From the NCBI RefSeq assembly GCF_028435265.1, contig NZ_JAGTJK010000012.1, positions 102,900 to 166,899 of the forward strand: 64,000 nt of DNA. The letters run 5' to 3'. The stretch is from Polyangium jinanense (lineage in GTDB: Bacteria > Myxococcota_A > Polyangia > Polyangiales > Polyangiaceae). Below are positions 28,191 to 56,312 of the stretch, one piece after another. Numbering within the stretch: position 1 is the stretch's first letter; each line of letters opens with the position of its first letter. A program made the position numbers and the translations under genes. Under the pieces are notes generated by a model. It searched no databases and was not told the origin of the DNA. It saw only the letters and a list, made by a program, of their open reading frames with translations.

Positions 28191-28191
28191 C

Positions 28192-37617: not shown

Positions 37618-37720
37618 CGGGCCTCGCGAATCGGTGTAGGGTACATCAGGATGTTGCCGTCCCGCGCTCGAAGGGAGCGCGCGGGCGGCGACGGTCGACG
37701 GGGACGCGGAGGATTGCACG

Positions 37721-38215: not shown

Positions 38216-38251
38216 CCCGAGGACGATTCGGCGTCCCAGGGGAACGACAGA

Positions 38252-38728: not shown

Positions 38729-40533
38729 GCAAGGGTGATCCGGATCGGGAAATGCTCGAGCTGTATGCGCGTGAGCTCGCGTATCTGCGCGAGCGTGGCG
38801 CCGAGTTCGCCAAGGATTATCCGAAGATCGCGGCGCGCCTCGGCACCTCGAACCAGGCCTCGTCCGATCCACACGTCGAGCGCCTGGTCGAGGCATTCGC
38901 GTTCCTCTCGGCGCGCCTCACGCGCGACATCGAGGCGGAGCTGCCGATTTACACGACCTCGCTGCTCGGCACCCTTTATCCGCAGCTCGCGTGTCCCGTG
39001 CCGGCGATGGCGATCGCCGGGTTCGAGATCGACCCGAAGGAGGCCAAGCTCGGCTCCGGGTACACGGTCGAGAAGCACACGCCGCTTTTCGCGGCCTCGC
39101 AAACCGGGCCGGTCTGTCATTTCCGCACCGCGTATCCGGTCACGCTCTGGCCGATCGAGATCGTCAATGCGGGCATGGTCCCGCCCGAGAACCTCGACGT
39201 TCCCTCGTGGCTGCTCACGAACGCGGCGGCGGCGCTGGAGATCGAGATCGCGACGGGCGGCGTTCCGCTCGACAAACTCGGCATGCGCTCGCTCCGCTTC
39301 CACATCACGGGCGGGGGCATGGGCGCGGCGCGCCTCTACGATCTGCTCGCGGCGCACGCCGTGCAGGTCCTCGTGGTCGGGGAAAAACCCTCGGAGGACT
39401 GGGCCTACGGAAAGATCCGGCCCGTCGGCTTCGAGGCGAACGAGGACGTCCTGCCGTATCCGCCGCACGCGCACCGCGGCCATCGCCTCGTGCAGGAGTA
39501 TTTCGCGTTCCCGGAGAAGTTCCATTTCTTCGACCTCGAACTGCCGAAGCTCCCGCCGCGCAAGAACGCGAAGATCCTCGTCCTCTTCGATCAGAAGCCG
39601 CCGGCCGGCGTCGCGGTTCGCCCGACGACGTTGAAGCTCGGCTGCACCCCGATCATCAACCTCTTCCCGCGCAGCGCCGAGCCCATCCGCGTCGATCACA
39701 CCCGGCCCGAATATCGCCTCGTCGCGGACGCGCGTCGCGAGCGGACCACGGAGATCCATTCGATCACGCGCGTCGCGGCCACGGCGCCCGGCGAGCCCAA
39801 GCAGATCGATTACGCGCCTTTCTTCTCGTTCGTGCACCACCGCGCGGGCGAAAGACCCCGCGCGTTCTGGCACGCGCGCCGCGTCGCCACGGGCCGCAAG
39901 GATCTGCCGGGCACCGACGTCTGGCTCACGTTCGTCGACACCGATTTCAAGCTCTCACGTCCCCCGTCGGAGACCGTTTACGCCGGCGTCCTCTGCACGA
40001 ACCGCGACCTCGCGAACGAGATCGCCAAGGACACGCAGCTCTCCCCCGAGCGCCCCGTCCCGGCCAAGAAAATCGTTTGTCTGACGAAACCAACCCCCCA
40101 GCGCGCCGCGCCGATGGGCGGCGAAGCGCTCTGGCGGCTCGTCTCGAACCTTTCGCAGAACCACCTCTCGATCACGGACGGCAAGACCGGCGTCGCCGCG
40201 CTCCGCGAGATCCTGCGCGCCTACGTCTTCGGCGATTCGCCCGACGCCGAGCGCCAGATCGACGCGCTCCTCGAAATTTCGAGCCGCGTGGTCACGCGTC
40301 GCCTCGGCAATGACGCGTGGCGGGGGTATTGCCGGGGCCTCGAGATCACGCTCACGCTCGCGGACGAGCAGTTCGCCGGATCGAGCCCGGTCCTTTTGGC
40401 CTCGGTCTTGAGCCGATTTTTCGCCTTGCAGGCGCACATCAATGCGTTCACCGAGCTCGTCCTGAAGCGCGCCTCGCGCGCGGAGGTCTGGAAACGATGG
40501 CCGCCCACGGCTGGCGAAAGAGCCCTTCTGTAG
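38725..40533 (+). CDS. tssF: T6SS baseplate subunit TssF
   Basis: 602 aa. LELYARELAYLRERGAEFAKDYPKIAARLG...DPHVERLVEAFAFLSARL is the canonical TssF N-terminus. Confidence 0.9.
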   Translation: MSKGDPDREMLELYARELAYLRERGAEFAKDYPKIAARLGTSNQASSDPHVERLVEAFAFLSARLTRDIEAELPIYTTSLLGTLYPQLACPVPAMAIAGFEIDPKEAKLGSGYTVEKHTPLFAASQTGPVCHFRTAYPVTLWPIEIVNAGMVPPENLDVPSWLLTNAAAALEIEIATGGVPLDKLGMRSLRFHITGGGMGAARLYDLLAAHAVQVLVVGEKPSEDWAYGKIRPVGFEANEDVLPYPPHAHRGHRLVQEYFAFPEKFHFFDLELPKLPPRKNAKILVLFDQKPPAGVAVRPTTLKLGCTPIINLFPRSAEPIRVDHTRPEYRLVADARRERTTEIHSITRVAATAPGEPKQIDYAPFFSFVHHRAGERPRAFWHARRVATGRKDLPGTDVWLTFVDTDFKLSRPPSETVYAGVLCTNRDLANEIAKDTQLSPERPVPAKKIVCLTKPTPQRAAPMGGEALWRLVSNLSQNHLSITDGKTGVAALREILRAYVFGDSPDAERQIDALLEISSRVVTRRLGNDAWRGYCRGLEITLTLADEQFAGSSPVLLASVLSRFFALQAHINAFTELVLKRASRAEVWKRWPPTAGERALL

Positions 40534-41558
40534 AGGCCTGGCTCTTCGACGAGGGGCACGCCTTCGATTTTTATCAGGCCGTCTCCCTCCTCGAACGCTT
40601 TCGGGAAGGCGACGCCGTCCCCGTCGGCGAGGGCTCCGATCCTTCGCGCGAGTCCGTGCGATTCGCCGGGAGCATCGCGCTCGCCTTCCCCGAGACCGAC
40701 GTCGCGCGCATTCGCCCGCCGCACCGCGAACGCGAGCCCGCGCAGATGCTCGTGAACTTCCTCGGTCTCGGCGGCGCCCTCGGCCCACTGCCGCCGCCGA
40801 TCGTCGAGTCGATTTACATGCGCGCCGTCCGCGGCGACACCGCGGCGCGGGATTTCCTCGACATCTTCAACCATCGCCTCGTCTCGTTCGCATATCGCAT
40901 CCGCAAGAACCATCGCCTCGGCCTCGGCATCTCCTCGCCCGAAAAAGACGGCGCGGCGCGGCACCTCTTCGCGCTCATGGGCCTCGGCTTTCAGGCGCTC
41001 GAAGGCCGCCTCGCGGTCCAGGATCGCGCCCTGCTCGAACACGCGGCAAACCTCGGAAGCGAGTCCCGTTCGCTCGAAGGCCTCGTCGCCATTCTCCGCC
41101 GGCATTTCGGCGTCCCCATCGAGCCCATCCCGCTCACAGGCGCCTTTCACCCGATCGAGGAAAACGATCGCACGGCGATCGGCCGATCCGGTCAGAACCG
41201 CGCACTCGGCCGCGACGCATGTCTGGGGGGCCGTTTCTGGGATCAGGAGTCCACGTTCGATCTGCGCATCGGGCCCATGAAGCTCGATGAATTCCTGCGA
41301 TTCCTCCCGGACGGCGACGCGCTCCGGCCTCTCTGCTCCCTCGTCCGTTTTTATGCAGGCGCACGATTCCACTTTGGCCTCATCCTCGTGCTGGCCGAGG
41401 GCGAGGCGCCGCGGATCGAGCTCGGCCGCGCCACGTGCGCGCTCCTCGGCCAAATCGCCTGGCTCGGAAACGTGAACAAGCACGGCGGCAGGGTGCGCGA
41501 GGTGCGTTTGTCGCGTGCGGCCATTCGGAAAGGCCTCGGTGAGGCGCCGGGCGGCTGA
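40497..41558 (+). CDS. tssG: T6SS baseplate subunit TssG
   Basis: The ATG at 40497 is in frame with track ORF 40317..41558 and overlaps tssF by 37 nt. FDFYQAVSLLERF...VRFAGSIALAFPETDV...MLVNFLGLGGALGPLP is the TssG pattern. Confidence 0.88.
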   Translation: MAAHGWRKSPSVEAWLFDEGHAFDFYQAVSLLERFREGDAVPVGEGSDPSRESVRFAGSIALAFPETDVARIRPPHREREPAQMLVNFLGLGGALGPLPPPIVESIYMRAVRGDTAARDFLDIFNHRLVSFAYRIRKNHRLGLGISSPEKDGAARHLFALMGLGFQALEGRLAVQDRALLEHAANLGSESRSLEGLVAILRRHFGVPIEPIPLTGAFHPIEENDRTAIGRSGQNRALGRDACLGGRFWDQESTFDLRIGPMKLDEFLRFLPDGDALRPLCSLVRFYAGARFHFGLILVLAEGEAPRIELGRATCALLGQIAWLGNVNKHGGRVREVRLSRAAIRKGLGEAPGG

Positions 41559-41611: not shown

Positions 41612-44600
41612 ATGACGACTGCAGAACAGAGCCAGGGCGCCACGGAGAGCATTCCGAGCAAGCTCGGGAAGTTCGCCACGGAGCAGATCGACAAGGCCGA
41701 GGTCACGGTCACGAAGGGCGTCTCTACCGTCCGTGACTCCACGAACCAGATCATCAGCAAGGCCGAAGAGCAGATCCTCAAGCTCAACAAGGCCCTCTAC
41801 GAGACCAAGAACGGCATCTCGTCCGGCATCGACACGGCCATCAAGGAGACGGAAGGCCAGCTCAAAGGGATCACGCCCGAGCTCAAGAAGATGGGCGAGG
41901 ATGCGATCAAGACGGCCAAGGACAAACTCGACGGACTCGTCGACGAGGTCGAGGGCAAGCTCGAATCGCAAAAAGACTCGCTCGTCAAGACGGCGCAGGA
42001 TCAGATTCGGAACGCGGCCGATCAGGCGAAGGGCAAGATCGACGAGATCGGACAGCTCGGCGAGGATCAGGCGAAGAAGGTCCTCGATGCGGTCAAGACG
42101 CAGGCCGACACCGTCGATCAGAAGCTCGGCGATCTCGAGGGGCAGATCGACGGCAAGATCCAGGCGATCGGCGACGACGTGCGCGGCAAGTTCGAAGCGG
42201 CGCTCGCCAAGGTGCCGGATCACGACGGCGCGAAGGTCGAGATGTCGGCGAACGTCGACGCCGTCGTCGCGGAGCTGCGTAGTGCCACGAAGGACTCGAT
42301 CGAGCAGGCGCGCGAGACGCTCAAGTCGCTGGTCAAGCAGACCGACGACACGATCATGCAGACGATCGGCGACGTGCGGCGCGCGATCGGCGAGGTCCCC
42401 GCTCGCATCAACCAGTGTGCGCAGGACATCCTCGCGAAGGTCAATGACGCGATCCAGAAGACGATCGACGAGATCTCGAACCTCGCGCACGGGCTCGTGG
42501 CGCGCACGGCGGAGCTGCTCAACCAGGCGCTGCTCACGATCACGAGCACCGTCGACAAACTCCTCGCCGACGGCTTCGCGCTCGTGCGTGGGATCAAGGC
42601 GGATCTCGATCGTCTCCTCGACAAACTGCTCGAACAGATCCGGGATCTGACGCTCGGCACGCTGGAGGACGTCCGCAAGGCGGCGAACGAGCTACTCGGC
42701 ACGTTCGAGGCTGAATGCAAGAAGATCCTCCAGACGATGGAGGAGTCCGTCATCGGCTCGGTCGAGGAGCTCGGCGGCAAGATGAACGCCTCGATCAAGG
42801 CGCTCCAGGCCGACCTGAACCTCGATGCCGACAAGATCGTCCGGGACCTCGTGGCCGAGGGCGCGAAAGGGCACGACGACGCGCTCGCCGACTTCATCAG
42901 CGCTGGTTATTCCGAGGACACCTCGGTCATCCCCAAGATCCGGGCCAAGGGCGAGGCTGCGATCAAGCAGATCGAGGCCAAGACGAAGGCCCAAGGGGAG
43001 AAGCTGATCAAGGACTTCGAGATGCAGGCGACCCTGCTGAAGCCCAAGATCCAGGCGCAGGGTATCAAGGTCGTCGCGCAGATCGCCGCGCTCGGACCGA
43101 AGCTTGCGATGCAGGCGGTCCAGATTGCGACGAGCATCGCGTCGTCCATCAAGGACAAGGGCGAGGCGGTCAAGAAGACGTTCGAGGAGCTGCAAAAGAC
43201 GCTCGTCGACGCGATCACGAAGAAGATCCCCGATTACCTCGAAAACTGCAAGAAGCAGATCAAGGCCGCGGCCGATGCGCTCGTCGAGGCGGGCAAGACG
43301 TTCTACGAGAAGACGCTCGCCGACATCATGGGGGCGATCAAGGCGGCCGAGGCGCGGTTCAAGCAGCTTGCCTCGGAGATGAAGGACCTCATCGAGACGC
43401 AGGTCCTCGCGCTCGTGGCCTCCATTCGCAGGACGGTGGAGACGTCCATCCAGCGCTTCAAGGATCTCGGCGCCGCGTTCGAGGAAAAGACGAATGCGCT
43501 CGTCAACGACATCCCGGCGCGGCTCATCAAGCTGGAGCAGGTCGCGCGGCTCGCGGTCGAGCGCGAGATCACGCTGGCGAAGGGGCTCGCCAATGCGACG
43601 AAGGACGACATTCTCCTGAAGGCGCGGACGACGCTGTCGGAGATCAAAAAAGCGGCGTACGGGGTCCTCGGCGGCATCCGGGGCGATTTCGGCGCGGTGC
43701 AGGGATCGCTCGCGCTCATCGTCCCGGCGGGCGCGGGGCTCGACGCGGCGGGCGCGATCAACCTCGCGGTCTCGGGCGGGCTCGAAGGGATGATCGCGTC
43801 GGCGGCGAATGCGGCGCAGGCCGCGGTGACGGCGGGCGTGAATGCGGCCGAGGCCGTGAACAATGCAGCCGAGCAGGCGGCGGCCGCGATGAGCGCGGCT
43901 GGATTCGACGGCGCGGCGAAGTCATTGACGGACGTGCTCTCGCAGCAGATGGGCGAGGTGCGGACGGAGGGCGAGAAGGCCAAGAACGTCATTGCCGCGG
44001 CGAAGGAGAAGATGACGGCGGTCGCCAAGGAGGCGACGGACACCTGCACGCAGGCGGCGCAGGCGGCGCAGGCCGCGGCCGCGGAGGTCGTGGCGGCCGC
44101 GAATTCGACGGGCGACGCGATCAAGGCGTCGGCGGAGAACCTGACGAAGGGCCTCGAAAAGGCGAAGGACATCGTCAAGGATGCCGGCAAGGCCGCGATG
44201 CAATCGATGAAAGAGGCCCAGGACGTGCGCAAGGGAGGCGACGGCGCGCAAGCCGGCGCGGGTGCGCAGGCCAAGGCCGGCGGGGCGGATGGCGCGGCGG
44301 CGGGCGCGGATGCGGGCGGCGCGGATGGCTTGGCGGTGCCCGAGGGCGAGGCGGCGGCTCCGGAAGGGGAGGCGGCCGCGGCTCCGGGCGGCGCGGAGGC
44401 GGCTCCGGACGGCGCGGCGGCGGCTCCGGATGTCAAGGCAGCGGCTCCGGATGCCAAGGCGGCGGTTCCGGATGCCAAGGTGGCGGTTCCGGATGCCAAG
44501 GTGGCGGTTCCGGATGCCAAGGTGGCGGCTCCGGATGCCTCGAAATCGGCGCCGGATGTCCCGAAATCGGCGCCGGATGTCTCGAAACCGGAACTGGACG

Positions 44601-45289
44601 TCTCGAAACCGGAACCAGGCGCCGATGTAGCGGCGGTGGCCGCCAAGGTACCGGATCCGGCTGCCAAGGTAGCGGCTCCGGCCGCCAAGGTAGAGGTGCC
44701 GGCCGCCAAGGTAGAGGCGCCGGCCGCCAAGGTAGAGGCGCCGGCCGCCAAGGTAGAGGCGCCGGCCGCCAAGGTAGAAATTCCGGGCGCCCCGAAAGCG
44801 GCGCCGGCCGCCAAGGTAGAAATTCCGGCCGCCCCGAAGGCGGCGCCGGCCGCCAAGGTAGACATTCCGGCTGCCAAGGTAGACGTTCCGGCTGCCAAGG
44901 CGGTGCCCGGCGTGCCGGAAGGCAAGGCTCCGGCGCCCCCAGGCAAAGCTGCGATGCCGGAAGGCAAACCGCAGGTGCCCGAAGGCGGCATGCCCGGGGT
45001 GCCAAAAACCGGCGAAAAGCCCGCCTTTCCTCCCGCCCCCGCGCCTCAGGCCCCCGCGCCTCCCGCTCCGGCGGACGTGGCCCCCTTCGCGCCCGCGCCG
45101 AAGCCGCCGGCCGCGCCCGCCGTCCCTGCCGGCGCGAAACCCGCGCCCGCCGCGCCCGCCGCCCCCGTGATCCCTGCCGGCGCGAAACCCGCGCCCGCCG
45201 CGCCCGCGCCGCCCGCCACGCCCGCGGCCAAGCCCGTCGTTCCCGCCGCCCCCGGCAGCAAATGGCCTGGCAGCGGCAACAAGCCTTGA
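41612..45289 (+). CDS. Uncharacterised 1225-aa helical-repeat protein with a Pro/Ala/Lys-rich tandem-repeat C-terminus, last gene of the T6SS core operon
   Basis: It starts 53 nt after tssG on the same strand. No signal peptide or TM helix is evident. The first ~870 aa are K/E/D/A/Q-rich amphipathic-helix-like sequence (for example KAEEQILKLNKALYETKNGISSGIDTAIKETEGQLKGITPELKKMGEDAIKTAKDKLDGLVDEVEGKLES). The last ~350 aa contain AVPDAKV, SAPDV(P/S)K and PAAKVE(A/V/I) heptad repeats and then an AP-rich tail. No enzymatic motif was recognised. Confidence 0.75.
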   Translation: MTTAEQSQGATESIPSKLGKFATEQIDKAEVTVTKGVSTVRDSTNQIISKAEEQILKLNKALYETKNGISSGIDTAIKETEGQLKGITPELKKMGEDAIKTAKDKLDGLVDEVEGKLESQKDSLVKTAQDQIRNAADQAKGKIDEIGQLGEDQAKKVLDAVKTQADTVDQKLGDLEGQIDGKIQAIGDDVRGKFEAALAKVPDHDGAKVEMSANVDAVVAELRSATKDSIEQARETLKSLVKQTDDTIMQTIGDVRRAIGEVPARINQCAQDILAKVNDAIQKTIDEISNLAHGLVARTAELLNQALLTITSTVDKLLADGFALVRGIKADLDRLLDKLLEQIRDLTLGTLEDVRKAANELLGTFEAECKKILQTMEESVIGSVEELGGKMNASIKALQADLNLDADKIVRDLVAEGAKGHDDALADFISAGYSEDTSVIPKIRAKGEAAIKQIEAKTKAQGEKLIKDFEMQATLLKPKIQAQGIKVVAQIAALGPKLAMQAVQIATSIASSIKDKGEAVKKTFEELQKTLVDAITKKIPDYLENCKKQIKAAADALVEAGKTFYEKTLADIMGAIKAAEARFKQLASEMKDLIETQVLALVASIRRTVETSIQRFKDLGAAFEEKTNALVNDIPARLIKLEQVARLAVEREITLAKGLANATKDDILLKARTTLSEIKKAAYGVLGGIRGDFGAVQGSLALIVPAGAGLDAAGAINLAVSGGLEGMIASAANAAQAAVTAGVNAAEAVNNAAEQAAAAMSAAGFDGAAKSLTDVLSQQMGEVRTEGEKAKNVIAAAKEKMTAVAKEATDTCTQAAQAAQAAAAEVVAAANSTGDAIKASAENLTKGLEKAKDIVKDAGKAAMQSMKEAQDVRKGGDGAQAGAGAQAKAGGADGAAAGADAGGADGLAVPEGEAAAPEGEAAAAPGGAEAAPDGAAAAPDVKAAAPDAKAAVPDAKVAVPDAKVAVPDAKVAAPDASKSAPDVPKSAPDVSKPELDVSKPEPGADVAAVAAKVPDPAAKVAAPAAKVEVPAAKVEAPAAKVEAPAAKVEAPAAKVEIPGAPKAAPAAKVEIPAAPKAAPAAKVDIPAAKVDVPAAKAVPGVPEGKAPAPPGKAAMPEGKPQVPEGGMPGVPKTGEKPAFPPAPAPQAPAPPAPADVAPFAPAPKPPAAPAVPAGAKPAPAAPAAPVIPAGAKPAPAAPAPPATPAAKPVVPAAPGSKWPGSGNKP
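44420..44900 (+). repeat. In-frame 21-bp tandem repeat blocks inside the 1225-aa gene
   Basis: Block 1 (~44420..44625) has units like gcggttccggatgccaaggtg and ggcgccggatgtcccgaaatc. Block 2 (~44655..44900) has units like ccggccgccaaggtagaggcg. Several adjacent units are identical. Confidence 0.85.
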
Positions 45290-45296: not shown

Positions 45297-45686
45297 TCAG
45301 GGCACCTGCACCGTGACCTGCCCGGGGAACGAGATCTGAATCACCCCGCCCCACATGCACATCAGCTTCGAGCTGTTGTTCAGCGCGGGCATGTTCGCGA
45401 GCAGCACCGTTGGGGCACCGACGATCCACGGCGCCGGCGTGTTCGGAATGCACGGCATTGGCGTGAGCACGCCCATCGCCGCCGCCGTCGCCGCGGCCAC
45501 CGTCGGGTTCGCCAGGCTCTGACACATCCCGAACGGCAGCACGTTCAGCATGGGCTTGCCGTCCATGATGTTCGCCAGCGGCCCCGCGCTGTTCATCGTC
45601 CGGTTCGCGGGAAGCACCGTGAGCGAGCTCGGCGCCACGCCGAAGCTGCATTGCATCATCGCCCCCATGCATACGTGCTGGCCCAT
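45297..45686 (-). CDS. DUF4280 (PAAR-like) spike-tip protein, stand-alone
   Basis: 129 aa. GAMMQCSFGVAPSSLTVLP...NVLPFGMCQSLANP...PCIPNTPAPWIVGAPTVLLANMPALNNSSKLMCMWGGVIQISFPGQ matches the DUF4280 pattern (C.FG...L.V...FG.C...C.P...W...C..GG.I.I...GQ). It is the last gene of the vgrG operon. Confidence 0.8.
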   Translation of the reverse strand: MGQHVCMGAMMQCSFGVAPSSLTVLPANRTMNSAGPLANIMDGKPMLNVLPFGMCQSLANPTVAAATAAAMGVLTPMPCIPNTPAPWIVGAPTVLLANMPALNNSSKLMCMWGGVIQISFPGQVTVQVP

Positions 45687-45688
45687 CG

Positions 45689-46441
45689 TCAGCCTCCCGC
45701 GAGCTTGTTCACGACCTTGTCGAAGAAGGACTCTTTTTTCTCCTCCTTCGCCTTCGGAATGCCCTTGTCGTCGTACTCGACCTCGCCGCGCTTCTCGCCG
45801 TCCTTGTACGTCGCCTTCGCCTTCAGCTTGCCCTGCACGTCGTAGCTGAACGCGTCGCCTTGCTTCTTGCCGTTGTCATAGATGGCGCGCTCGCGGACCT
45901 CGCCGTTCGGGAAGTACTCGATCACCTCCCCGTGCAGTTTGTCGGCCTTGTAGCTCGCTTTGCGCAGGGTGTTGCCCTTGCCGTCGAGGAACAAGGATTC
46001 CCCTTCGAGCTTGCCGTTCTTGTAGAACGACCGGACGACCTCGTTGCCCTGCTCGTCGAACGACATGAACGGGCCGTTCTGCTTGCCCTTCTCGAAATGC
46101 ATGAGCGTCCGGAGCCGGCCGTCGTCGTAGAGCCGCGTCGGCCCGTGCTGCTCGCCCTTCGCGAACGTGACGATCTGCGAGACCTTGCCGTTCTCGTCTA
46201 CGATCTTCGTCTCGCCGTGGAGCACGCCGTCCTGGAATGACGAACGCTCGACCTCGCGTCCTTCCGGATCGTACGTGATCGACAAACCGTGCAGCTTGCC
46301 GTTCTTGTAATTCGCCCGGTGCGCGATCTGCTTTTCGGTCTCCCCGTACTGGACGAACTCGCCGTGGAGCACGCCGTCTTCCATCTCGAACCGGGAGATC
46401 AGCTTGCCGTTCTCGTCGCGCTCTTCGTGGTCGGTCGGCAT
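45689..46441 (-). CDS. MORN-variant repeat protein (YwqK-family-like)
   Basis: 250 aa with ~9 repeats of the form Y.NGK.HG....Y...G (NYKNGKLHGLSITYDPEG, FQDGVLHGETKIVDENG, FYKNGKLEGESLFLDGKG, YKADKLHGEVIEYFPNG...) and a Lys-rich tail. It lies between vgrG and the DUF4280 gene with 10- and 2-nt spacers. Confidence 0.75.
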   Translation of the reverse strand: MPTDHEERDENGKLISRFEMEDGVLHGEFVQYGETEKQIAHRANYKNGKLHGLSITYDPEGREVERSSFQDGVLHGETKIVDENGKVSQIVTFAKGEQHGPTRLYDDGRLRTLMHFEKGKQNGPFMSFDEQGNEVVRSFYKNGKLEGESLFLDGKGNTLRKASYKADKLHGEVIEYFPNGEVRERAIYDNGKKQGDAFSYDVQGKLKAKATYKDGEKRGEVEYDDKGIPKAKEEKKESFFDKVVNKLAGG

Positions 46442-46451
46442 CGGATCCTCG

Positions 46452-48452
46452 CTAATTGATCTTCACCATGCCGCCCTTCAAGGTCAGCATGCCGCCGCCC
46501 TCCACCGCCGCCTGCGCGCCGCCCTTCGCCTTCAGCGCGATCGCGCCCTCGAGCGTCATGTTCGTCCCGCCCTTGGCCTTGAAATCGGTGCCGGCCTTCA
46601 GGTCCATCGCCGTCCCGGACTCGGCCTTGAAATCCGTGCCCGCCTTCATCGAAAACGCCTGCTTGGCCTTGATCGTGACGCTCTTCGCCTCGATCACGAG
46701 GTCGCCGTCGACCTTGATCGTGTAGTTCTTCGTCACCTTGTAATCGAGGTTCGCCTTGTTCGTGTGCGCCTCGTCCTTGGTGACCGTGAGCGTGCGTTTG
46801 CCCTTCACGCTGTGCGTCTCGTCGCCCTTGTCGACCTTGATCGTGCGGTTGCCCTTGGTGACCGTGAGCGTCTCGTCGCCCTCCTCGATCGTCACCTTCC
46901 GCTCGTTTTTGACGTTCTTCGTGTAATCGTGGAGGACCTTGACCGTCCAGTCGTTCTCCACCTCGAAGAGCATGTCCTTCTGGGCGTGCGCGTAAAACTC
47001 CTCGTTATCCTTCTTGTCGTCGAAGCGCAGTTCGTTCCCCGCCTCGCCCTCCTTCGACGATCGGCTCAGGATCGTGCTCTTCGTCTGCGCGCCCGGCAGC
47101 CCATAAGGCACCGTCTGCTCGGCGTTGTACACCGAGCCCGTCACGAGCGGCCTGTCCGGGTCGCCGTCGATGAAGCTCACGACGACCTCCTGCCCGATGC
47201 GCGGCAAGAACCACGCGCCCCAGCTCTTGCCCGCCCACGCCTGCACGACGCGCACGAAGCACGAGCTCTTGTCGTCCTTCGCGCCCTTGCGATCCCAGTG
47301 GAACTGGACCTTGATGCGCCCGTATTCGTCGGTCCACTGCTCCTCGCCGCTCTTGCCCACGACGACGGCCGTCTGCGTGCCGGGGATCGCGGGCTTCGGC
47401 GTGATGCGCGGCGGGCGGTACGACGTCTTCTTCGGGAACGCCTCGAAGGTATTCGTGTACCCCTCCTGGCTTGCGCGGTGCATGATCGAGGTGAGAACCC
47501 AGTCCGTGTTCGCGTCGTCCCGATCGTGCTCGTCGAGCTTGAACGCGTGCCCCGCCGTGAAGGCGCGGCAGCTCGATGTACCCGACAAACGCACCGCCCG
47601 CGCCTCCTCGGCCTCGATGCGGAGCTTCGCGCGCGTGTCGCCCGGGCTTTTCTCGATGTGCCCGCCCGGGTACTCGAAGAGCTCGAGCTTGGCCGTTTCG
47701 CCCGAGACCTCCGCGAGCAGCGACGTGCTCGGCATCTCGAAGTTGTAATCCGTCGACGCGTACTTTCCCGCGACGATCTCCTCTTCGAGCGTGCACTCGA
47801 GGACGGCGTCCTCGTCCGTCGACGTGGAGAACTGCTCGACGAACCGCGCCTTGTCGAGGTTCGGGCACGGCGCGGCCGACGCGCTGTCGTCCGAGAGCAC
47901 CATCACGTGCTTGCCGTCCTCGTGCTTGAAATAATAATGGATCCCCTCGTCCTCCATGAGCCGCGACACGAAATCGAGCGCGGTCTCCTGGTACTGCACG
48001 CAGTAGGGGCGCGGGGTGTAGGAGCCCTTCAGCGAATCCTTGAAGTGCTCGCCCGACGAGAAGCCGAGCTCCTGGAAGAGCGCCTTCAGGATGTCGGGCA
48101 CGCTCTTCTCCTGGAAGATCCGGCAATCGCTGGTCTTGCCGAGCAGCCATAACCACGGGTGCAGCTCCGCGCGGTAACGCGTCTGCTTGCCGACGCGCCC
48201 CGCCTGGACGAACCGCGTGCAGATCCCGTGGATGAAGCGCGGCTTCTCCTTGGCCATGCCCCGGATCGTCAAGGTCACGCCCTTGCCGACGATCGCCTTG
48301 AAGTCGAGCGCCTTCTCCGGCGACAAAAGCTCGAGCTCGAAGCGGAAGAGCCCCGAGATCCGCTCTTCGCCATGCAGATCGACGAGCAGCACCGCGTCCG
48401 CGCCGAAGGGCGTCGAGATGGCGATGCCGAGGGTGCCCTGCGGATAAGGCAT
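46452..48452 (-). CDS. vgrG: T6SS spike protein VgrG (TssI), no C-terminal effector extension
   Basis: 666 aa. LLVDLHGEERISGLFRFELELLS..., YRAELHPWLWLLGKTSDCRIFQEKSVPDILKALF and RVVQAWAGKSWGAWFLPRIGQEVVVSFIDGDPDRPLVTGSVYN are followed by gp5-like beta-helix repeats (HSVKGKRTLTV.., DYKVTKNYTIKVDGDL..). Confidence 0.92.
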   Translation of the reverse strand: MPYPQGTLGIAISTPFGADAVLLVDLHGEERISGLFRFELELLSPEKALDFKAIVGKGVTLTIRGMAKEKPRFIHGICTRFVQAGRVGKQTRYRAELHPWLWLLGKTSDCRIFQEKSVPDILKALFQELGFSSGEHFKDSLKGSYTPRPYCVQYQETALDFVSRLMEDEGIHYYFKHEDGKHVMVLSDDSASAAPCPNLDKARFVEQFSTSTDEDAVLECTLEEEIVAGKYASTDYNFEMPSTSLLAEVSGETAKLELFEYPGGHIEKSPGDTRAKLRIEAEEARAVRLSGTSSCRAFTAGHAFKLDEHDRDDANTDWVLTSIMHRASQEGYTNTFEAFPKKTSYRPPRITPKPAIPGTQTAVVVGKSGEEQWTDEYGRIKVQFHWDRKGAKDDKSSCFVRVVQAWAGKSWGAWFLPRIGQEVVVSFIDGDPDRPLVTGSVYNAEQTVPYGLPGAQTKSTILSRSSKEGEAGNELRFDDKKDNEEFYAHAQKDMLFEVENDWTVKVLHDYTKNVKNERKVTIEEGDETLTVTKGNRTIKVDKGDETHSVKGKRTLTVTKDEAHTNKANLDYKVTKNYTIKVDGDLVIEAKSVTIKAKQAFSMKAGTDFKAESGTAMDLKAGTDFKAKGGTNMTLEGAIALKAKGGAQAAVEGGGMLTLKGGMVKIN

Positions 48453-48570
48453 GGATCTTCAGACGAGAGCGTACCGGGCTTCTCGGGTTTTCGGCAAGAG
48501 GCTTGATCTCCGGCGCACACTCATCGATGATCGAGCGCGCTGTGGTGTGCTTTCAGGAAGAGACCTGCCG

Positions 48571-49860
48571 ATGACGTTCTTCCGAACGGGCCATGGTCTC
48601 TTCCAGTTCGGGAGGCCGAAGCGCCTCGACAGGCACGGGATCCTCGCCTTTCTGCGCAGCGTCGCGACCGATCGTGGAGGCATGCTGGAGCTTCGGCGCA
48701 TCCTCGCCGACGAGCTGCATCGCACGTCGATCCACAACATGCGCGACGAGCTCGTGATCGAGCAGCTCGCGGACCGTTACCTGCGCGGCTCGCTCACGCT
48801 CGTCCACGTGCGCCCGCTCGACATCGGGATCGAGCTCGAGGGCTTCCTCGTCGAAGGCGCGGACGCCACGCCTTTGACCGGCCCGAAGAACGAGGCCGGC
48901 GACCTGCGCCCCGCGCCCGAGGTCCCACCCGAATATCCGGTCCTCGCGCGTGTCGAGTCCGATCAGATCATCGACTCCACGCTGAAGCTCGTCGCGAAAC
49001 TCGGCGATCTGCTCTTCGGGGCGTTTGGCCTGCAAAAACGTCCCTCGACGCTCGCGAAGGAGCTCGTGCTGCTCGCCGCCGAAGAGGCGAGCGGCGTGAA
49101 GCTCGCGAACACGAAGGTCGATCTCGATCTCGGGTTGCAACTGCATCCGCAGGGCAAGATCCTGCTGCCCGATCCGCAAGTGAAGGACGCGTACGTCGCC
49201 GCGGCGGCCGAGATCGCGGCGGGGCCGCGTCCGGCGGCAAAGGGTCTCATCGATTTGATGTGGCCGCTCACGCGGGTCGACACGAACCGCCGCTTCGACA
49301 ATCCCGTCGGGGCCGGGCCGGTGAAGAGCGATCAAAGCGACGGGAAGAAGGGCCCCGAGGCCGCGCTGGATTGGGTCGAAATCGAGCTCGTCGACGACGG
49401 CGATCCGCCGAAGCCCTACGCCGGCGCGCGGTATCGAATCGAGCTCGAGGGCGGCAAGGTGATCGAGGGGACGCTCGACGACGACGGCAAGGCGCGCGTC
49501 GATGGGATTCCGTCGGGCAGCGGGACCGTCACGTTCCCGGACATCGACGCCGGGTTTTGGGGGACGAACGGCGCAGGCAGCGCAGGCGCCGCCGCGCCGC
49601 CGCCTCCGTCTTCGTCGTCGTCCTCCGCGGTCTCCGCGGACGAGGCGTGGGTCGAGATCGAGCTCGTCGACGACGACGACCCGCCGAAGCCCCGCGCCGG
49701 CGCGCGATATCGTATCGAGCTCGAGGGCGGCAAGGTGGTCGAGGGGACGCTCGACGACCAAGGGAAAGCGCGCGTCGACGGGATTCCGTCGGGCAGCGGG
49801 ACCGTCACGTTCCCGGATATCGATGGCAGCACGTGGGGGCCGGGAGAACGAGGCACATGA
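48571..49860 (+). CDS. Hypothetical protein (~429 aa) with two copies of a ~59-aa beta-rich module; first gene of the putative effector operon divergent from vgrG
   Basis: The ATG at 48571 follows caggaagag and is in frame with track ORF 48451..49860, whose first 40 codons would overlap the vgrG start. No signal peptide. The C-terminal modules read WVEIELVDD(G/D)DPPKP.AGARYRIELEGGKV.EGTLDD.GKARVDGIPSGSGTVTFPDID. Confidence 0.65.
   Translation: MTFFRTGHGLFQFGRPKRLDRHGILAFLRSVATDRGGMLELRRILADELHRTSIHNMRDELVIEQLADRYLRGSLTLVHVRPLDIGIELEGFLVEGADATPLTGPKNEAGDLRPAPEVPPEYPVLARVESDQIIDSTLKLVAKLGDLLFGAFGLQKRPSTLAKELVLLAAEEASGVKLANTKVDLDLGLQLHPQGKILLPDPQVKDAYVAAAAEIAAGPRPAAKGLIDLMWPLTRVDTNRRFDNPVGAGPVKSDQSDGKKGPEAALDWVEIELVDDGDPPKPYAGARYRIELEGGKVIEGTLDDDGKARVDGIPSGSGTVTFPDIDAGFWGTNGAGSAGAAAPPPPSSSSSSAVSADEAWVEIELVDDDDPPKPRAGARYRIELEGGKVVEGTLDDQGKARVDGIPSGSGTVTFPDIDGSTWGPGERGT
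49372..49824 (+). repeat. Internal duplication: two 177-bp units (49372..49548 and 49648..49824) separated by a Ser/Pro/Ala linker
   Basis: The two units align colinearly without gaps, with most positions identical at the nucleotide level by eye. Confidence 0.85.
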
Positions 49861-50072
49861 GCGACGAAGTCCTTTACTCCGATCTCGGGATTCCCGAGTG
49901 GGATCCGGACCGCGAACCTGCGGCGGAGCCCGAGGCCGGCGCGTCCCCCCCGGGGCCGCCCGCGCAGGGCTCCATCGAGGATATGGGCGTGCGCTGCGTG
50001 GCGCGGTCGGCGGACGGGACACGAGCGGTGTGTACGCTCGAAGTGCTGCGGCCGTTTGTCCTGTCCGCTTGA
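49857..50072 (+). CDS. Small hypothetical protein (71 aa), start overlapping the upstream stop (ATGA)
   Basis: MSDEVLYSDLGIPEWDPDREPAAEPEAGASPPGPPAQGSIEDMGVRCVARSADGTRAVCTLEVLRPFVLSA. It is in frame within track ORF 49260..50072. The ATGA overlap suggests translational coupling. No family, signal peptide or TM was recognised. Confidence 0.4.
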   Translation: MSDEVLYSDLGIPEWDPDREPAAEPEAGASPPGPPAQGSIEDMGVRCVARSADGTRAVCTLEVLRPFVLSA

Positions 50073-50098
50073 GCTGACGACGCATCCTGGAGAACGCC

Positions 50099-53000
50099 AT
50101 GAGCAAGAAGATGCCGACGAAAGGGGTGCTCACGTTCGAGGCCGAGGGCAGCGACTCGAGCAGCTCGCCTTATTACTCGCGCGTGCTCCACCACCCGACG
50201 ATGGGGTCGGGCGTGACGATCGGCCGCGGCTACGACATGAAGGACCGTTCGTCCGCGGACGTCGAAAAAGATTTCGTCGCGGCGGGTCTGTCCGCGGATG
50301 TCGCGAAGAAGTATGCCAAAGGCGCGGGGCTCACGGGGTCCGAGGCGCGGACGTTCGTCACGAACAACAAGGGCGTCTTGCCCGAGCTCACGTGGGACCA
50401 GCAGCTCGCGCTCTTCGAGTCCACGTATGCGTGGCACGAGAAGGACGTCAAGCGCATCTGCGACAAGGAAGATTGTCAGAACATCTACGGCGTCGTGGAC
50501 TTCAAGACGCTCCACCCGCGCATCCTCGACGTGCTCGTGGATCTCAGGTTCCGCGGCGACTACACGCCCGCGTCGCGCAAGCGCATCCAGAAGCTCGTCG
50601 TCGAGAACGATTATGCGCGCTTCCGCGCGGACCTCTCCAATCGGTCGAACTGGAGCGCGGTGCCGGAGGACCGTTTCGATCGGCGGAGCAAGTACCTGAA
50701 GGACGCGCCGCAGACGGACGACACGGCCGATCACGAGGATGTGACGTACAGCACGCCGACCAAATCGTTTGACCTCAAGACGATGGGCGAGGCAGAGCTC
50801 TACGATCACCTCCGGAGCGTGTGGAAGGCGGAGCAGAAGGCGTTCGGCAACGAGGGCAAACCCGAATTCGACTTCCAGGACGAGGAGGGCCGCGTGAACC
50901 TGCTCGGCGCGCGCGGGTTCGACGCCGACCAGATGGTGCCCGTGCCGAGCACGAACACGAAATACGACGACACGCTTTTCCTCGTCTACAAGAAGGACGG
51001 CGCGAAGCACGTCGAGAAGTTCCACTACTCGAGCGAGTGGACGAGGACGGGCTCGAAGGGGGCCGTGATCATCCTCGGGCAGCACAAGTACTGCCTGGCG
51101 ATCCACAAGAAGCTCAAGGAAGACGGCACGCCCTACCCGTACAACAAGCTCCCCGCGTGGCGCGATTACTACAACACGAACAAGACGCAGCCGCCGGGAG
51201 CCGGTTACCGCGCATTGAACCCGGACCCGACGGTCGGCATCGTCCGCGTGCACGATGCAAGCGCGGCAGGATCCGTGGGCGCTGAGACCACGGGGGTCAC
51301 GCAGAACGCCTCGATCAACATCCATTACGGCGGCGAGGTGCCGAGCGGCTGGACGCCCAGCAAGGGGTGGTCCGACGGGTGCCAGGTCCTCATGCGCGGC
51401 GACCGGTACCTGCGGTTCATGGAGGTCATCGAGTCCGATCACTCCCTGAAGGGCACGATCAACAACGAGCTCGCGCCCAAGCCTTCGGCCGACGGGAAGC
51501 GGTCGCTCATCTACACGCTCGTCAAGGGCGACTCCCTCGCGCCGAGGGACGCGCCGTCCATGGGGTTCCCCGTGGACATCGGCAAAGGGAAGAAGATCGA
51601 CAATTCGACCACGCTCGCGATGTTCGAGCACACCGAGAAGACGATCGACAGCGGCTATTTCCCTCTCGGGACGAATACGACCTGGCACGGCGGCGCCCAT
51701 TTGCACGTCGCCGAGGGGACCGCGGTCCACGCGATGTTCGACGGGCGGATCGTCGCCGCGCGGCTGCCCGCGGCGGCGGACAAATCGAAGGGGGCCTTCG
51801 GCAGCAGGAACTTCATCCTGATCCGGCACGAGATCGACGGGGATCGCTTGAACAAGGCGAATGCCCTGCTCAAGCGCACCCTCATCGGGTACACGATCCG
51901 CGCCGAGACGCTCGTGCTCCGCAAGGAGCCGGGCAACGCCGCGGCCGTCGTCGATACCTTGAAGGTGGGCGACGAGGTGCTGCTGAAGACCGTCCCCCAT
52001 CCGAAGAAGGACGGCGTCTCGTGGGCGCACGTCGTCGTTTCCAAATCGGCGAAGGAAGGCCTGAAGGACAAGGTCGGCTATGTGGCCGCCACGTCCTTGC
52101 TCGTCACGCCCAGGTACGCGCCGCCGAAGGAGCGCGTGAAGCCGTCCGAGACGCGGGTGGTGTATTCGCTCTACATGCACCTCGGGCCCCAGGCGCTCGA
52201 CACGACGAACTCCGTCCTCGCCTCGATCCCCTGGGTCTCGGGGGCGCAGTGGAGCGTGTCGGACGACGTCCGGCTCCGCAGCGCGCCGGGCGTCCCGGAT
52301 CCGGACAAGACGCAGATCGGTACGCTCGTCTCCGGCGACACGTTCGTGCAGCTCACCCCCGACCTCGTGACCGCGGGGAGTTATCAGTGGATGAAGGTCC
52401 GCGTCACCAAGGCGAAAGACGCGAAGCTCGCGAACAAGGAGGGGTTCGTCGCGAAGCTCGACAAACGCATGAGCCTCACGAAGGCGCCGAGCGCGGAGAT
52501 CCTCGACAAGCTCAAGTCCGGCGACGTGGTCAAGCTCGACAAACCGGTGGTCGCGGGGGAGCAGATCTGGACGGCGGGCACGATGACGGGGGCCTCGGGT
52601 GGGGCGCAGGCGGGCATTCACTGGGAGGTCTTCTCGGAGCAGCCCCTCTTCCCGGACTGGCCGTCCGCCGACGATCCCGACGAAAATCTGAACATGGACG
52701 TGAAGAAGATTTTCGACATGATCGAGCAGGAGTTCTGGGGGTACAACGACACGATCTCCGCGTCCGAGCTGAACGATTTCTACAAGAACAATCCCAAGGC
52801 GAAATCGCTGCGATACTACGCGTGCCGGTTCATGAGCGAGTGGGGCTGCGACATCGACAAGGCCGTCGCGCAGATCCAATCGAGGGGGCTCTACAGCGTC
52901 TCGGGGCTCGCCGACAAGATGCGGCCCTACCTGTGGTGGAAGGAGGCGGAGGGCAAGAAGGTGGAGCTGCCGAAGAGCCCGATCGTCTGGCACTACAACC

Positions 53001-53986
53001 CGATCGGGTTCGTCTACGCGATGACCAAGATCGAGGAGACCCCCGCCCCGCGCACCGAGCCGGCGCAGACGAAGGAGGATCCGAAGGTCGCCACGGAGAC
53101 GCAATGGTCCGGCGTCGCGTACGGCGATTACGTGCTGAAGAAGGGCGACGACGACGGCAAGCAGACCTGGGGCGGCCTCGCGCGCAAGGAGAAGGGCACA
53201 TACGTGGTCGAGCTGCAGAAGGATCTGCTCGAGCTCGGCTACTGGATCAGCGCCGCGAGCTCGAACAAGGGGATGAACGCCGACGGCAATTTCGGCGGCA
53301 CGGTGCGCGGCGCCGTCATGCTCTTCCAGCGCGAGCACGGGTTGAAGGAGACGGGGGAGGTCGACGCGGCGACGGCGAAGCTCATCAAGGAAAAGACGAA
53401 GGTAGCGAACTACGAGCGGCCCGGGCACAAGGCGGGCGATTACGGTCAGTTTTATCAGCTCCCGCCTTCGGAGAACTACGAGCGGTACGACGAGGTGCGC
53501 GACGACAATTGCATCCCGAAGGACAACTGGGGCACGAAGGAGATGATCAAGATGCTCACCTCCGCGGGCAAGGCCTGGAAGGAGCAAGGAAAGTCGCTGT
53601 TCCTGGTCGGGGACGTCTCGCTCTACAACGGTGGCAAGATGGACCCGCACAAGTCCCACCAGGACGGCACCGGCGTGGACCTCGACTCCGATGAGCTGTG
53701 CAGCATCAACCGGGCGACGTTCAAGAAAGAGGAGTCCCTGTCGCTCACGCAGCTGCTCATCAAGCACGGCGCGAAGCGCGTCCTCTTCAATTGCAAGTAC
53801 GTGACCGACCAGGTGCCCGAGGCGTTCGCGTTATCGGGGCACCACCACCATTACCACGTCGACGTGAAGCCGGGGCTGAAGACGAACGAGCACCCCGAGG
53901 AGGAGTGCAAGTGGTGCCACAAGTCGGTGTACAAGAAGTGCGACTACGCCAAGAAGGCGAAGCGCTCGGACTCGGAGCTCACCTGA
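50099..53986 (+). CDS. Multi-domain peptidoglycan-hydrolase protein (1295 aa), candidate T6SS antibacterial effector
   Basis: No signal peptide. Modules read by eye, in order:
- A lysozyme/pesticin-like N-terminus (FEAEG...GVTIGRGYD, ~50100-50700).
- A region with INIHYGG...WSDGCQV (~50900-51500), reminiscent of the YkuD-fold H...(S)xGC active site.
- An M23/LytM-like domain split by two SH3b-like inserts (WHGGAHLHVAEGTAVHAMFDGRIV, FILIRHEIDG, YSLYMHLGP, AGIHWEVF; ~51660-52650).
- PG_binding_1 (VVELQKDLLELGYW...DGNFGGTVRGAVMLFQREHGLKETGEVD, ~53190).
- A MepA/LAS-type metallopeptidase (DPHKSHQDGTGVDLD ... GHHHHYHVD, ~53500-53900). Confidence 0.8.
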   Translation: MSKKMPTKGVLTFEAEGSDSSSSPYYSRVLHHPTMGSGVTIGRGYDMKDRSSADVEKDFVAAGLSADVAKKYAKGAGLTGSEARTFVTNNKGVLPELTWDQQLALFESTYAWHEKDVKRICDKEDCQNIYGVVDFKTLHPRILDVLVDLRFRGDYTPASRKRIQKLVVENDYARFRADLSNRSNWSAVPEDRFDRRSKYLKDAPQTDDTADHEDVTYSTPTKSFDLKTMGEAELYDHLRSVWKAEQKAFGNEGKPEFDFQDEEGRVNLLGARGFDADQMVPVPSTNTKYDDTLFLVYKKDGAKHVEKFHYSSEWTRTGSKGAVIILGQHKYCLAIHKKLKEDGTPYPYNKLPAWRDYYNTNKTQPPGAGYRALNPDPTVGIVRVHDASAAGSVGAETTGVTQNASINIHYGGEVPSGWTPSKGWSDGCQVLMRGDRYLRFMEVIESDHSLKGTINNELAPKPSADGKRSLIYTLVKGDSLAPRDAPSMGFPVDIGKGKKIDNSTTLAMFEHTEKTIDSGYFPLGTNTTWHGGAHLHVAEGTAVHAMFDGRIVAARLPAAADKSKGAFGSRNFILIRHEIDGDRLNKANALLKRTLIGYTIRAETLVLRKEPGNAAAVVDTLKVGDEVLLKTVPHPKKDGVSWAHVVVSKSAKEGLKDKVGYVAATSLLVTPRYAPPKERVKPSETRVVYSLYMHLGPQALDTTNSVLASIPWVSGAQWSVSDDVRLRSAPGVPDPDKTQIGTLVSGDTFVQLTPDLVTAGSYQWMKVRVTKAKDAKLANKEGFVAKLDKRMSLTKAPSAEILDKLKSGDVVKLDKPVVAGEQIWTAGTMTGASGGAQAGIHWEVFSEQPLFPDWPSADDPDENLNMDVKKIFDMIEQEFWGYNDTISASELNDFYKNNPKAKSLRYYACRFMSEWGCDIDKAVAQIQSRGLYSVSGLADKMRPYLWWKEAEGKKVELPKSPIVWHYNPIGFVYAMTKIEETPAPRTEPAQTKEDPKVATETQWSGVAYGDYVLKKGDDDGKQTWGGLARKEKGTYVVELQKDLLELGYWISAASSNKGMNADGNFGGTVRGAVMLFQREHGLKETGEVDAATAKLIKEKTKVANYERPGHKAGDYGQFYQLPPSENYERYDEVRDDNCIPKDNWGTKEMIKMLTSAGKAWKEQGKSLFLVGDVSLYNGGKMDPHKSHQDGTGVDLDSDELCSINRATFKKEESLSLTQLLIKHGAKRVLFNCKYVTDQVPEAFALSGHHHHYHVDVKPGLKTNEHPEEECKWCHKSVYKKCDYAKKAKRSDSELT

Positions 53987-53990
53987 GCCG

Positions 53991-54665
53991 CTAGAGCCCG
54001 TACACCTTCGCGAGCGCCTTCTGCGTCGTCGCGTCGTACTTGCCCGTCACGGAGATCTTTTCGGCGCGCTGGAAGGCCTCGATCGCCGCGGTCGTCGCCT
54101 CGTCGAGCGTGCCGCTCGGCTCGTCGGCATGAAGCCCGAGGTTCTTGAGGCGCGTTTGCGCCCCGCGGATCGTGTCGATCGGCTCGAGCTCGCCGAGCGC
54201 GAGCTTGTACGTTTGTCGCCGGTTCGGCAGCTTCAGCACCGCCTCGGCCTGATCCGCCGGCACCTCGGCTTCCAGTGTCCCGTCGTCCCCTGTCGTCCCC
54301 TCGAGCTTGCGCTCGCCGCACTCGATCTCCCAGGGCTCGTTCGCGAGCGGCTCCTGGCCCGCGGTGAGCTTCAGGTAGACCCGGACCTTTTCGCGCTTGA
54401 CCACGAACCTGTGCGACTTGCCCGTCTCGATCGGCGACGGCTTCGGCTTCGGCTGCGGCACCGTCACCTTGTCGCCCGGCGCGAGCACGTTCGGATCCTT
54501 GCGCAGCTTGCGCAGCGCCGCGTTCTCCGGCGCCTCCCATACCGTCTTCCACGGAAGACCGTATTTCGCCGCGATCGTCGCGATGCACTCCCCCGCCTGG
54601 ACGTCGTGTGTCGTGCCTGCCATGGCGATTCCCAGGCGATGATACACGTCGCGCTGTCCGATCAC
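53991..54665 (-). CDS. LysM plus PG_binding_1 peptidoglycan-binding protein with a central beta-rich module
   Basis: The LysM domain reads THDVQAGECIATIAAKYGLPWKTVWEAPENAALRKLRKDPNVLAPGDKVTVP. The C-terminal IRGAQTRLKNLGLHADEPSGTLDEATTAAIEAFQRAEKISVTGKYD is PG_binding_1-like. A GTG at 54665 overlaps the upstream stop (GTGA); an alternative ATG is at 54623. No signal peptide. Confidence 0.75.
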   Translation of the reverse strand: MIGQRDVYHRLGIAMAGTTHDVQAGECIATIAAKYGLPWKTVWEAPENAALRKLRKDPNVLAPGDKVTVPQPKPKPSPIETGKSHRFVVKREKVRVYLKLTAGQEPLANEPWEIECGERKLEGTTGDDGTLEAEVPADQAEAVLKLPNRRQTYKLALGELEPIDTIRGAQTRLKNLGLHADEPSGTLDEATTAAIEAFQRAEKISVTGKYDATTQKALAKVYGL

Positions 54666-56206: not shown

Positions 56207-56312
56207 GCGCGTCCTCCGGAAGGGCCGCCACCTTGGCGGGATCGGGAGGCGGGCGCAAGTGTTTGCCTTGAAGGGCCTGCCTGCCCCATGCTGGGCGCGC
56301 GCCGGTGCGCGT

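Follow-up and report, generated by a model that had tools for sequence, protein, structure and literature searches.

What does a MORN-repeat protein do when its gene stands between the genes for the spike protein and the spike tip of a type VI secretion system (T6SS)? The question is raised by a three-gene operon (hereafter the triad) in a stretch of 64,000 nucleotides from Polyangium jinanense (contig NZ_JAGTJK010000012.1, positions 102,900 to 166,899; hereafter the window), in which the gene for a 250-residue MORN protein separates vgrG from the gene for a stand-alone DUF4280 PAAR-like tip. A sequence-only reading of the triad had offered two answers, namely that the MORN protein was recruited as a spike adaptor or cargo, or that it is an orphan immunity protein whose toxin has been lost. 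Because of its position, partners, fold and family signal, we lean, by analogy, towards a version of the first: the MORN protein would belong to the family of TseF, known from Pseudomonas aeruginosa, and would dock on the spike and leave the cell with it, its ligand being something other than the Pseudomonas quinolone signal (PQS).

The anatomy, fold, conservation, synteny and selection of the Polyangium triad can be observed directly. The three open reading frames (ORFs) have a third-position GC of 0.91-0.94 in DNA of about 68% GC and are therefore genuine genes. VgrG matches Phage_GPD (3.5e-97), Phage_base_V (1.2e-15) and Gp5_trimer_C (2.7e-25) in Pfam and TIGR03361 (3.8e-183) in NCBIfam. 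It is of the plain form, consisting of gp27/gp5 modules and stopping at the beta-helix without a C-terminal or effector extension (C-terminus GGGMLTLKGGMVKIN); its ending, ...KGGMVKIN, is the same as that of VgrG3 of P. aeruginosa. The DUF4280 protein has neither N- nor C-terminal extensions, PF14107 covering residues 5-123 of its 129 (1.1e-35), and it contains 5 Cys and 3% charged residues, with a grand average of hydropathy (GRAVY) of 0.58. Neither Pfam nor NCBIfam detects a toxin domain on any of the three products. The description given by the sequence-only reading was borne out throughout, including the VgrG of 666 residues that ends after its beta-helix, the unextended DUF4280 protein, the Lys-rich tail of the MORN protein (KAKEEKKESFFDKVVNKLAGG), the spacers of 10 and 2 nt, and the 1295-aa hydrolase, which is encoded divergently nearby. 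The last codons of the MORN gene include a GGGAGG motif 6 nt ahead of the ATG of the DUF4280 gene, which implies, as far as the sequence can tell, that the two genes are translationally coupled.

The MORN protein itself is matched by MORN_2 (PF07661) at 1.4e-18, with 65 bits against a cutoff of 29.6. This was the sole family returned by the Pfam and NCBIfam scans, and the adaptor families named by the sequence-only reading (DUF4123, DUF1795 and DUF2169) gave no match in them. The chain begins with an HEERDENGKL motif, continues through about 9.5 beta-hairpin repeats and closes with a Lys/Glu-rich linker and a short amphipathic helix at residues 239-248. The AlphaFold2 (AF2) model, with a predicted local distance difference test (pLDDT) score of 95.3, folds the repeats into 19 strands, or about 9.5 hairpins, that form one extended single-layer sheet, the only helix being the C-terminal one at residues 239-248. 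The best Foldseek matches of this model are MORN1 and junctophilin, both of them scaffolds that bind proteins and lipids, and the sole match of the sequence in the PDB is the N-terminal MORN-like domain of SET7/9. No signal peptide was found in the sequence, and Pfam, NCBIfam and the AF2 model revealed no catalytic motif and no enzymatic or pore-forming domain. Charged residues make up 36% of the MORN protein, against the 3% of its DUF4280 neighbour.

The comparison with a studied system came from the tip gene. A tblastn search with DUF4280 against plasmid records matched, among others, a P. aeruginosa record (L023) carrying the end of the H3-T6SS, where the genes follow in the order tssG, clpV, two further genes, vgrG, a gene for 178 residues and a convergent DUF4280 gene. 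The last three are vgrG3 (PA2373), tseF (PA2374) and the PAAR-like PA2375 (PMC5379069, PMC9846239). Over its full length, the VgrG of the window shares 44% identity with VgrG3; the DUF4280 protein is 64% identical to PA2375, while the MORN protein shares 29% identity with TseF over 154 residues (E 9e-17), with alignments in several registers. Like the Polyangium protein, TseF is a MORN-repeat protein without an enzymatic domain, encoded directly after an orthologous plain vgrG and beside an orthologous DUF4280 gene; it likewise lacks both a signal peptide and an immunity partner, and carries a C-terminal tail after its repeats. The core order tssB-C-hcp-E-F-G ... vgrG is also the same, and the cluster in the window is an H3-type T6SS. 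The two arrangements nevertheless differ in several respects. TseF has 178 residues and about 6 repeats, against 250 and about 9.5 in Polyangium, and is without the N-terminal EERD-motif repeats; the DUF4280 gene of P. aeruginosa converges on tseF and is not co-transcribed, and between tssG and vgrG stand clpV and two other genes; and the ligand and receptors ascribed to TseF, namely PQS and FptA/OprF, have no obvious counterpart in Polyangium. Judged by its sequence, TseF is a shortened member of the family of proteins that occupy this slot. The arrangement and the family were already known from P. aeruginosa, and Lin et al. had previously noted homologues beside vgrG in diverse bacteria; what the Polyangium protein adds is a view across phyla. 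In the literature that we searched, no paper mentions MORN together with DUF4280.

What is known of TseF gives the comparison its functional content. GST-TseF pulls down VgrG3 and VgrG1b, release of TseF falls in clpV3, hsiB3C3 and hcp3 mutants, and the protein, which is non-toxic, is found in supernatants and on vesicles and has been reported to bind PQS-loaded vesicles as well as the receptors FptA and OprF (PMC5379069). VgrG binding and T6SS-dependent release have been demonstrated, in the literature, for TseF alone, and it is by analogy that we ascribe the same behaviour to the Polyangium protein and suggest the nature of its ligand. Reports of PQS are confined to P. aeruginosa and its relatives (PMC8776902). 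Given these reports, and a family that occurs also in Polyangium, Azospirillum and Acidobacteriota, binding to PQS vesicles, FptA and OprF is probably specific to P. aeruginosa.

That the two proteins belong to one family is suggested by relatives that lie between them. The slot proteins of Paraburkholderia sp. PGU19, P. phymatum, Cupriavidus sp. P-10 and Azospirillum spp. have 225-240 residues and 28-33% identity, and share with the Polyangium protein the motif (V/H)EERDxxGxL. Members align collinearly and have this N-terminal motif in common, and a basic linker or tail with a short amphipathic helix is present in most of them, though not in Azospirillum. The triad order with short gaps recurs in Paraburkholderia and Cupriavidus, and Azospirillum resembles the P. 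aeruginosa H3-T6SS in having a convergent DUF4280 gene. When the MORN protein was searched by tblastn against 72,556 plasmid records, all 11 of its 11 best matches lay 80-1700 bp from a DUF4280 gene; lower-ranked MORN_2 matches (e.g. Martelella, Rhodovulum), as well as proteins P0002, P0004 and P0005, stood in contexts unrelated to T6SS. A profile derived from the slot proteins of Proteobacteria placed all Polyangia-type MORN proteins (eight from triads, plus P0333 of locus L022) at ranks 5-14 and put 166 of 167 generic MORN_2 proteins below them, the exception being P0233 at rank 12. The generic MORN_2 homologues that we examined have no T6SS link and score lower against this profile. In the reverse direction, which is a weaker test, the Polyangium profile ranked Azospirillum and Paraburkholderia high. 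A possible further member is TeoL (Reut_A1725) of the Cupriavidus necator T6SS1, a secreted, non-toxic, vesicle-recruiting effector whose gene lies directly downstream of vgrG1 (PMC8776902). It differs in binding the O-antigen of lipopolysaccharide and TonB-dependent receptors, and we liken it to the family by its described position. In Cupriavidus sp. P-10, the gene in the TeoL-like slot (L027, 6280-6996) does encode a MORN protein of this family.

Outside Proteobacteria the family keeps to the spike even where the tip changes. In an acidobacterial locus (Thermoanaerobaculia), clpV is followed by a vgrG (55% identity), a gene for 381 residues and the gene for a MORN protein 41% identical to ours, with a canonical PAAR nearby and no DUF4280; in L022 the MORN gene adjoins a PAAR gene, and the 7.3 kb of contig upstream contain no vgrG. 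Since the MORN gene is kept with vgrG and a canonical PAAR, the family tracks the spike with whichever tip it carries and not DUF4280 specifically. VgrG-DUF4280 pairs that have no MORN gene also exist (L024, L028 and L031), and these belong to other T6SS types. The method of searching matters here. Protein-library searches with the MORN protein or with the alignment of its orthologues recovered fragments and generic MORN_2 proteins only, to which an exhaustive phmmer search added P0333, and the full-length orthologues were found in contigs and not in the protein libraries, so that protein searches alone make the family look nearly unique. Among the best phmmer matches were giant MORN_2 proteins, in which no PAAR, VgrG or toxin domains were found, and a scan of metagenome contigs for the MORN protein gave one irrelevant match. 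Two acidobacterial-type loci also contain a gene for a 352-aa S-adenosylmethionine (SAM) methyltransferase beside the PAAR gene (L022, 5679-6737; L034, 741-1799).

Within the genus the arrangement is stable. Polyangium sp. 15x6, y55x31 and 6x1 and P. fumosum DSM 14668 proved, in a genome scan, to encode the MORN protein with 90-94% identity, and Polyangium metagenome-assembled genomes with 68-78%. The order vgrG-MORN-DUF4280 is intact in nine Polyangium or Polyangia-type loci, including contigs reached via VgrG, in which identity to the window (VgrG/MORN/DUF4280) ranges from 98/94/100% down to 60/47/82%; within Polyangium alone the figures are 86-98% for VgrG, 90-100% for DUF4280 and 68-94% for MORN. 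The gap between vgrG and the MORN gene is 10-13 nt in all Polyangium loci, and that between the MORN and DUF4280 genes is 2 nt in eight of the nine related loci and 3 nt in the other. Every one of the 16 mapped loci that have a VgrG3-like spike gene plus a tip gene holds a MORN gene in the same slot. The ratio of nonsynonymous to synonymous substitution rates (dN/dS) is 0.22-0.37 for MORN, 0.05-0.15 for VgrG and 0-0.15 for DUF4280; the MORN gene is thus under purifying selection, with a looser constraint than either of its partners.

These observations bear most directly on the proposal that the MORN gene codes for a YwqK-type immunity protein or antitoxin and has outlived its lost toxin. It has in its favor the MORN_2 repeats and the many database homologues that carry the name "antitoxin component YwqK". 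The YwqK/MORN_2 "antitoxins" of polymorphic toxin systems share this type of repeat, but they adjoin a toxin gene, and no toxin gene or domain is adjacent in any triad locus. The position has been retained in three phyla, alongside structural spike genes and under purifying selection. In Polyangium the gene is fixed, at 68-94% identity, and does not co-vary with toxins, the toxin- or immunity-like genes that do vary between loci being located elsewhere in the locus. Moreover, a protein without a signal peptide would offer no periplasmic protection against the neighbouring peptidoglycan hydrolases. As for the name, RefSeq calls TseF itself (WP_033990499.1, L023 7407-7943) a "toxin-antitoxin system YwqK family antitoxin", which shows that MORN_2 repeats attract this name generically and that it is no evidence of immunity. 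With the slot occupied in 16/16 loci, a dN/dS of 0.22-0.37 and a gene that stays fixed while toxin and immunity genes change, we find the claim of an orphan immunity gene hardly credible.

What changes between loci is the region beyond vgrG. The N-terminal part of the 1295-aa hydrolase, some 580 residues, is 40-50% identical across Polyangium loci and may be a loading domain, and the C-termini differ, with M74 in the window and M15_3, Ntox44 or Amidase_2 in other Polyangium loci. The 469-aa protein encoded next to vgrG has one or two diverged paralogues in these loci. Since the cargo genes change from locus to locus while the triad stays constant, the locus is, by its gene content, a fixed spike module beside polymorphic cargo, and the true toxins that this spike carries as cargo are probably the variable peptidoglycan hydrolases. 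Could the MORN protein be a toxic cargo effector as well, one that disrupts membranes, for example, by means of its sheet and amphipathic tail? The slot often holds cargo effectors, and both MORN arrays and tails that are basic and amphipathic are capable of binding membranes (PMC5379069). However, no locus offers a candidate immunity gene, the protein is highly conserved and not polymorphic, enzymatic and pore-forming domains are absent, and TseF is reported to be non-toxic (PMC5379069, PMC12133291). We therefore regard a toxic MORN effector as very improbable.

A rival of more substance holds that the MORN protein is an assembly factor that is not itself secreted, that is, a chaperone or adaptor which solubilises the hydrophobic tip, mounts the tip on VgrG or bridges large effectors to the spike, in the manner of DUF2169 or the Tap/Eag proteins. 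The gene is flanked by vgrG on one side and, at a distance of 2 nt, by the PAAR-like gene on the other, whose ribosome-binding site it holds; it co-occurs with a tip gene at every locus seen, including the PAAR gene of L022; the contrast between 3% charged residues with a GRAVY of 0.58 in DUF4280 and 36% charged residues in MORN would suit a chaperone and its client; and deletion of tseF in P. aeruginosa resembles structural H3-T6SS mutants (PMC9866239). There is also a precedent in DUF2169, a dedicated chaperone whose gene stands between vgrG and a PAAR-like DUF4150 (PIPY) gene with strict co-occurrence (PMC11883445), although the likeness is one of genomic logic only, DUF2169 being of an unrelated fold and family, not secreted, and paired with DUF4150. 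Against this reading, the MORN fold is unrelated to the known T6SS chaperones and the adaptor families are unmatched, the rate of evolution of the MORN protein exceeds that of either supposed client, and TseF has been detected in supernatants and on vesicles (PMC5379069). In addition, the MORN-less VgrG-DUF4280 pairs of L024, L028 and L031 contain equally hydrophobic DUF4280 proteins, and DUF4280 thus does not generally need a MORN partner. The hydrophobicity of DUF4280, considered as a reason for having one, was set aside as having no discriminating power, since it is equal with or without a MORN neighbour. On this evidence, we regard a non-secreted assembly factor as possible, though less likely than a protein exported with the spike.

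A broader variant, likewise possible but less likely, is that TseF-family MORN proteins are ancient, obligatory parts of VgrG3-type spikes, instead of iron effectors peculiar to one species, and act as a clamp or chaperone in the assembly of VgrG with its hydrophobic DUF4280 or PAAR tip or couple large cargo to the spike. It becomes possible given the spread of the family over Myxococcota, Acidobacteriota and the Alpha-, Beta- and Gammaproteobacteria, combined with the reported restriction of PQS. If it were true, a disabled H3-T6SS would be what lies behind the iron, PQS and oxidative-stress phenotypes that P. aeruginosa shows without tseF, and TseF would have to be reinterpreted.

Several points also weigh against the reading that we prefer, that of a TseF-family protein which docks on the spike and is exported with it. 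First, secretion of TseF is reduced and not abolished in H3 mutants (PMC5379069), and the biology of TseF has been called contentious (PMC12133291). Second, that tseF deletion phenocopies structural H3 mutants would fit an assembly factor equally (PMC9866239), as would the mere 2 nt that separate the MORN gene from that of the tip. Third, the 29% identity to TseF is driven by the repeats, neither TseF nor the Cupriavidus protein is among the top 30 of the Polyangium profile, and orthology with TseF depends mainly on synteny and on the intermediate members. Finally, the experimental support comes from TseF, the myxobacterial members being known from their genes. We nonetheless think that the adaptor-or-cargo half of the sequence-only reading pointed in the right direction, given a relative in the TseF slot that is also a relative in sequence; its suggestion of a fresh recruitment does not hold, the arrangement being an old one that is conserved across phyla.

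By analogy with TseF, the most likely sequence of events is as follows. A single transcript would yield VgrG, the MORN protein and the DUF4280 tip, with the last codons of the MORN gene supplying the ribosome-binding site of the tip gene. In the cytoplasm it would dock non-covalently on the VgrG trimer or on the complex of VgrG with its tip, and contraction of the sheath would then carry it out of the cell. Once outside, it would act by non-toxic binding or tethering, probably to a membrane or vesicle component other than PQS.

Taken together, the comparison corrects a misleading "YwqK antitoxin" reading and unites the three genes in a single conserved spike module. It also extends the TseF family far beyond Pseudomonas, the same slot being occupied in several classes of Proteobacteria as well as in acidobacteria and myxobacteria. 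It is hard to reconcile a PQS-specific role in iron uptake with this spread, and we would rather tie the core role of the family to the spike. Tractable myxobacteria could offer a clean system in which to distinguish passengers of the spike from assembly factors.

The triad belongs to the core T6SS operon of the window, whose gene set is complete (Table 1), although it is oriented against it, with its last stop codon 7 nt from that of the convergent coiled-coil gene. In two more distant loci (L018, 8001-11230; L020, 6694-9846) the triad follows tssF-tssG directly and on the same strand; the triad of the window is therefore inverted relative to what would be the ancestral order, tssG-vgrG-MORN-DUF4280. 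A homologue of the coiled-coil protein, with 47% identity over 863 residues (tblastn), comes after DUF4280 in the same operon in L018 (11284-14073) and L019. The coiled-coil protein is thus a conserved part of this T6SS cluster and could be either a structural accessory or a membrane-active effector. In Myxococcus xanthus, MXAN_4798 and MXAN_4799 beside vgrG1 have been listed as T6SS accessory genes (PMC13310138).

Table 1. Coordinates of the spike module, of the surrounding secretion genes and of related loci (window positions, except where a locus is named)
Feature	Position	Strand	Basis or remark
Stand-alone DUF4280 PAAR-like spike tip, 129 aa	45297-45686	-	Pfam; PA2375 orthologue
3' end of MORN gene and 2-nt spacer (45687-45688)	45687-45698	-	GGGAGG at 45693-45698
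MORN_2 repeat protein, 250 aa, TseF-like	45689-46441	-	Pfam MORN_2, AF2 model, slot orthologues
vgrG-MORN spacer, 10 nt	46442-46451	-	GAGGA Shine-Dalgarno-like motif at 46446-46450
vgrG, 666 aa	46452-48452	-	Pfam, NCBIfam; plain spike protein
Core T6SS operon: putative TssJ lipoprotein, tssK, tssL, tssM, tssA, tssB, tssC, hcp, tssE, tssF, tssG	27693-41558	+	Pfam; lipoprotein signal
1225-aa coiled-coil (apolipoprotein-like) protein	41612-45289	+	weak Pfam matches; convergent with triad
469-aa ORF adjoining vgrG	48451-49860	+	listed start abuts vgrG start; no family match
Probable divergent promoter region, vgrG / 469-aa-family gene	48453-48570		sequence and translation
Variable cargo region beyond vgrG	48571-54665		Pfam; comparison with other Polyangium loci
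1295-aa polymorphic peptidoglycan hydrolase	50099-53986	+	PG_binding_1, M74; weak pesticin/M23/SH3
224-aa LysM/PG_binding_1 protein	53991-54665	-	Pfam
PKMT-like SAM-methyltransferase gene	54662-56902	-	beyond LysM/PG_binding_1 gene
Hydrolase-family relatives	L007 476-4192; L008 6292-11076; L010 9795-12509		shared N-terminal part

A tblastn search with P. aeruginosa ClpV3 found no ClpV/TssH in the 64-kb window; in proteobacterial and acidobacterial relatives clpV stands between tssG and vgrG. A spike without the MORN gene is seen in Sorangium sp. So ce448 (L017, 8001-17959), where a VgrG 60% identical to that of the window is followed by neither MORN nor DUF4280 but by genes for a HEAT_2 protein and AAA proteins, with a separate DUF2169/Tox-PAAR-like/Imm11 cluster nearby; here an orphan spike is combined with a different loading system.

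On the far side of vgrG, the homologues of the 469-aa protein align from residue 41 onward, and the ATG at 48571 is the likeliest true start of the gene. In the probable promoter region so delimited no consensus sigma-70 site was found, promoter and terminator scans being uninformative in DNA of such high GC content. The C-terminus of the 469-aa protein consists of two tandem repeats of about 60 residues (WVEIELVDDxDPPKP...GTVTFPDID), encoded at roughly 49399-49848. A PKMT-like methyltransferase, such as the one beyond the LysM/PG_binding_1 gene of the window, is encoded directly upstream of vgrG in two Polyangium loci (L008, 597-2177; L010, 1151-2716), and the occurrence of methyltransferase genes near the spike may be a coincidence or reflect a functional link. 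Finally, a plus-strand ORF of 2092 residues at 57347-63625 is overlapped by eight minus-strand ORFs of 100-345 residues, four of which were tested against Pfam and gave no match; the codon-position GC pattern of these eight is more gene-like than that of the long ORF.

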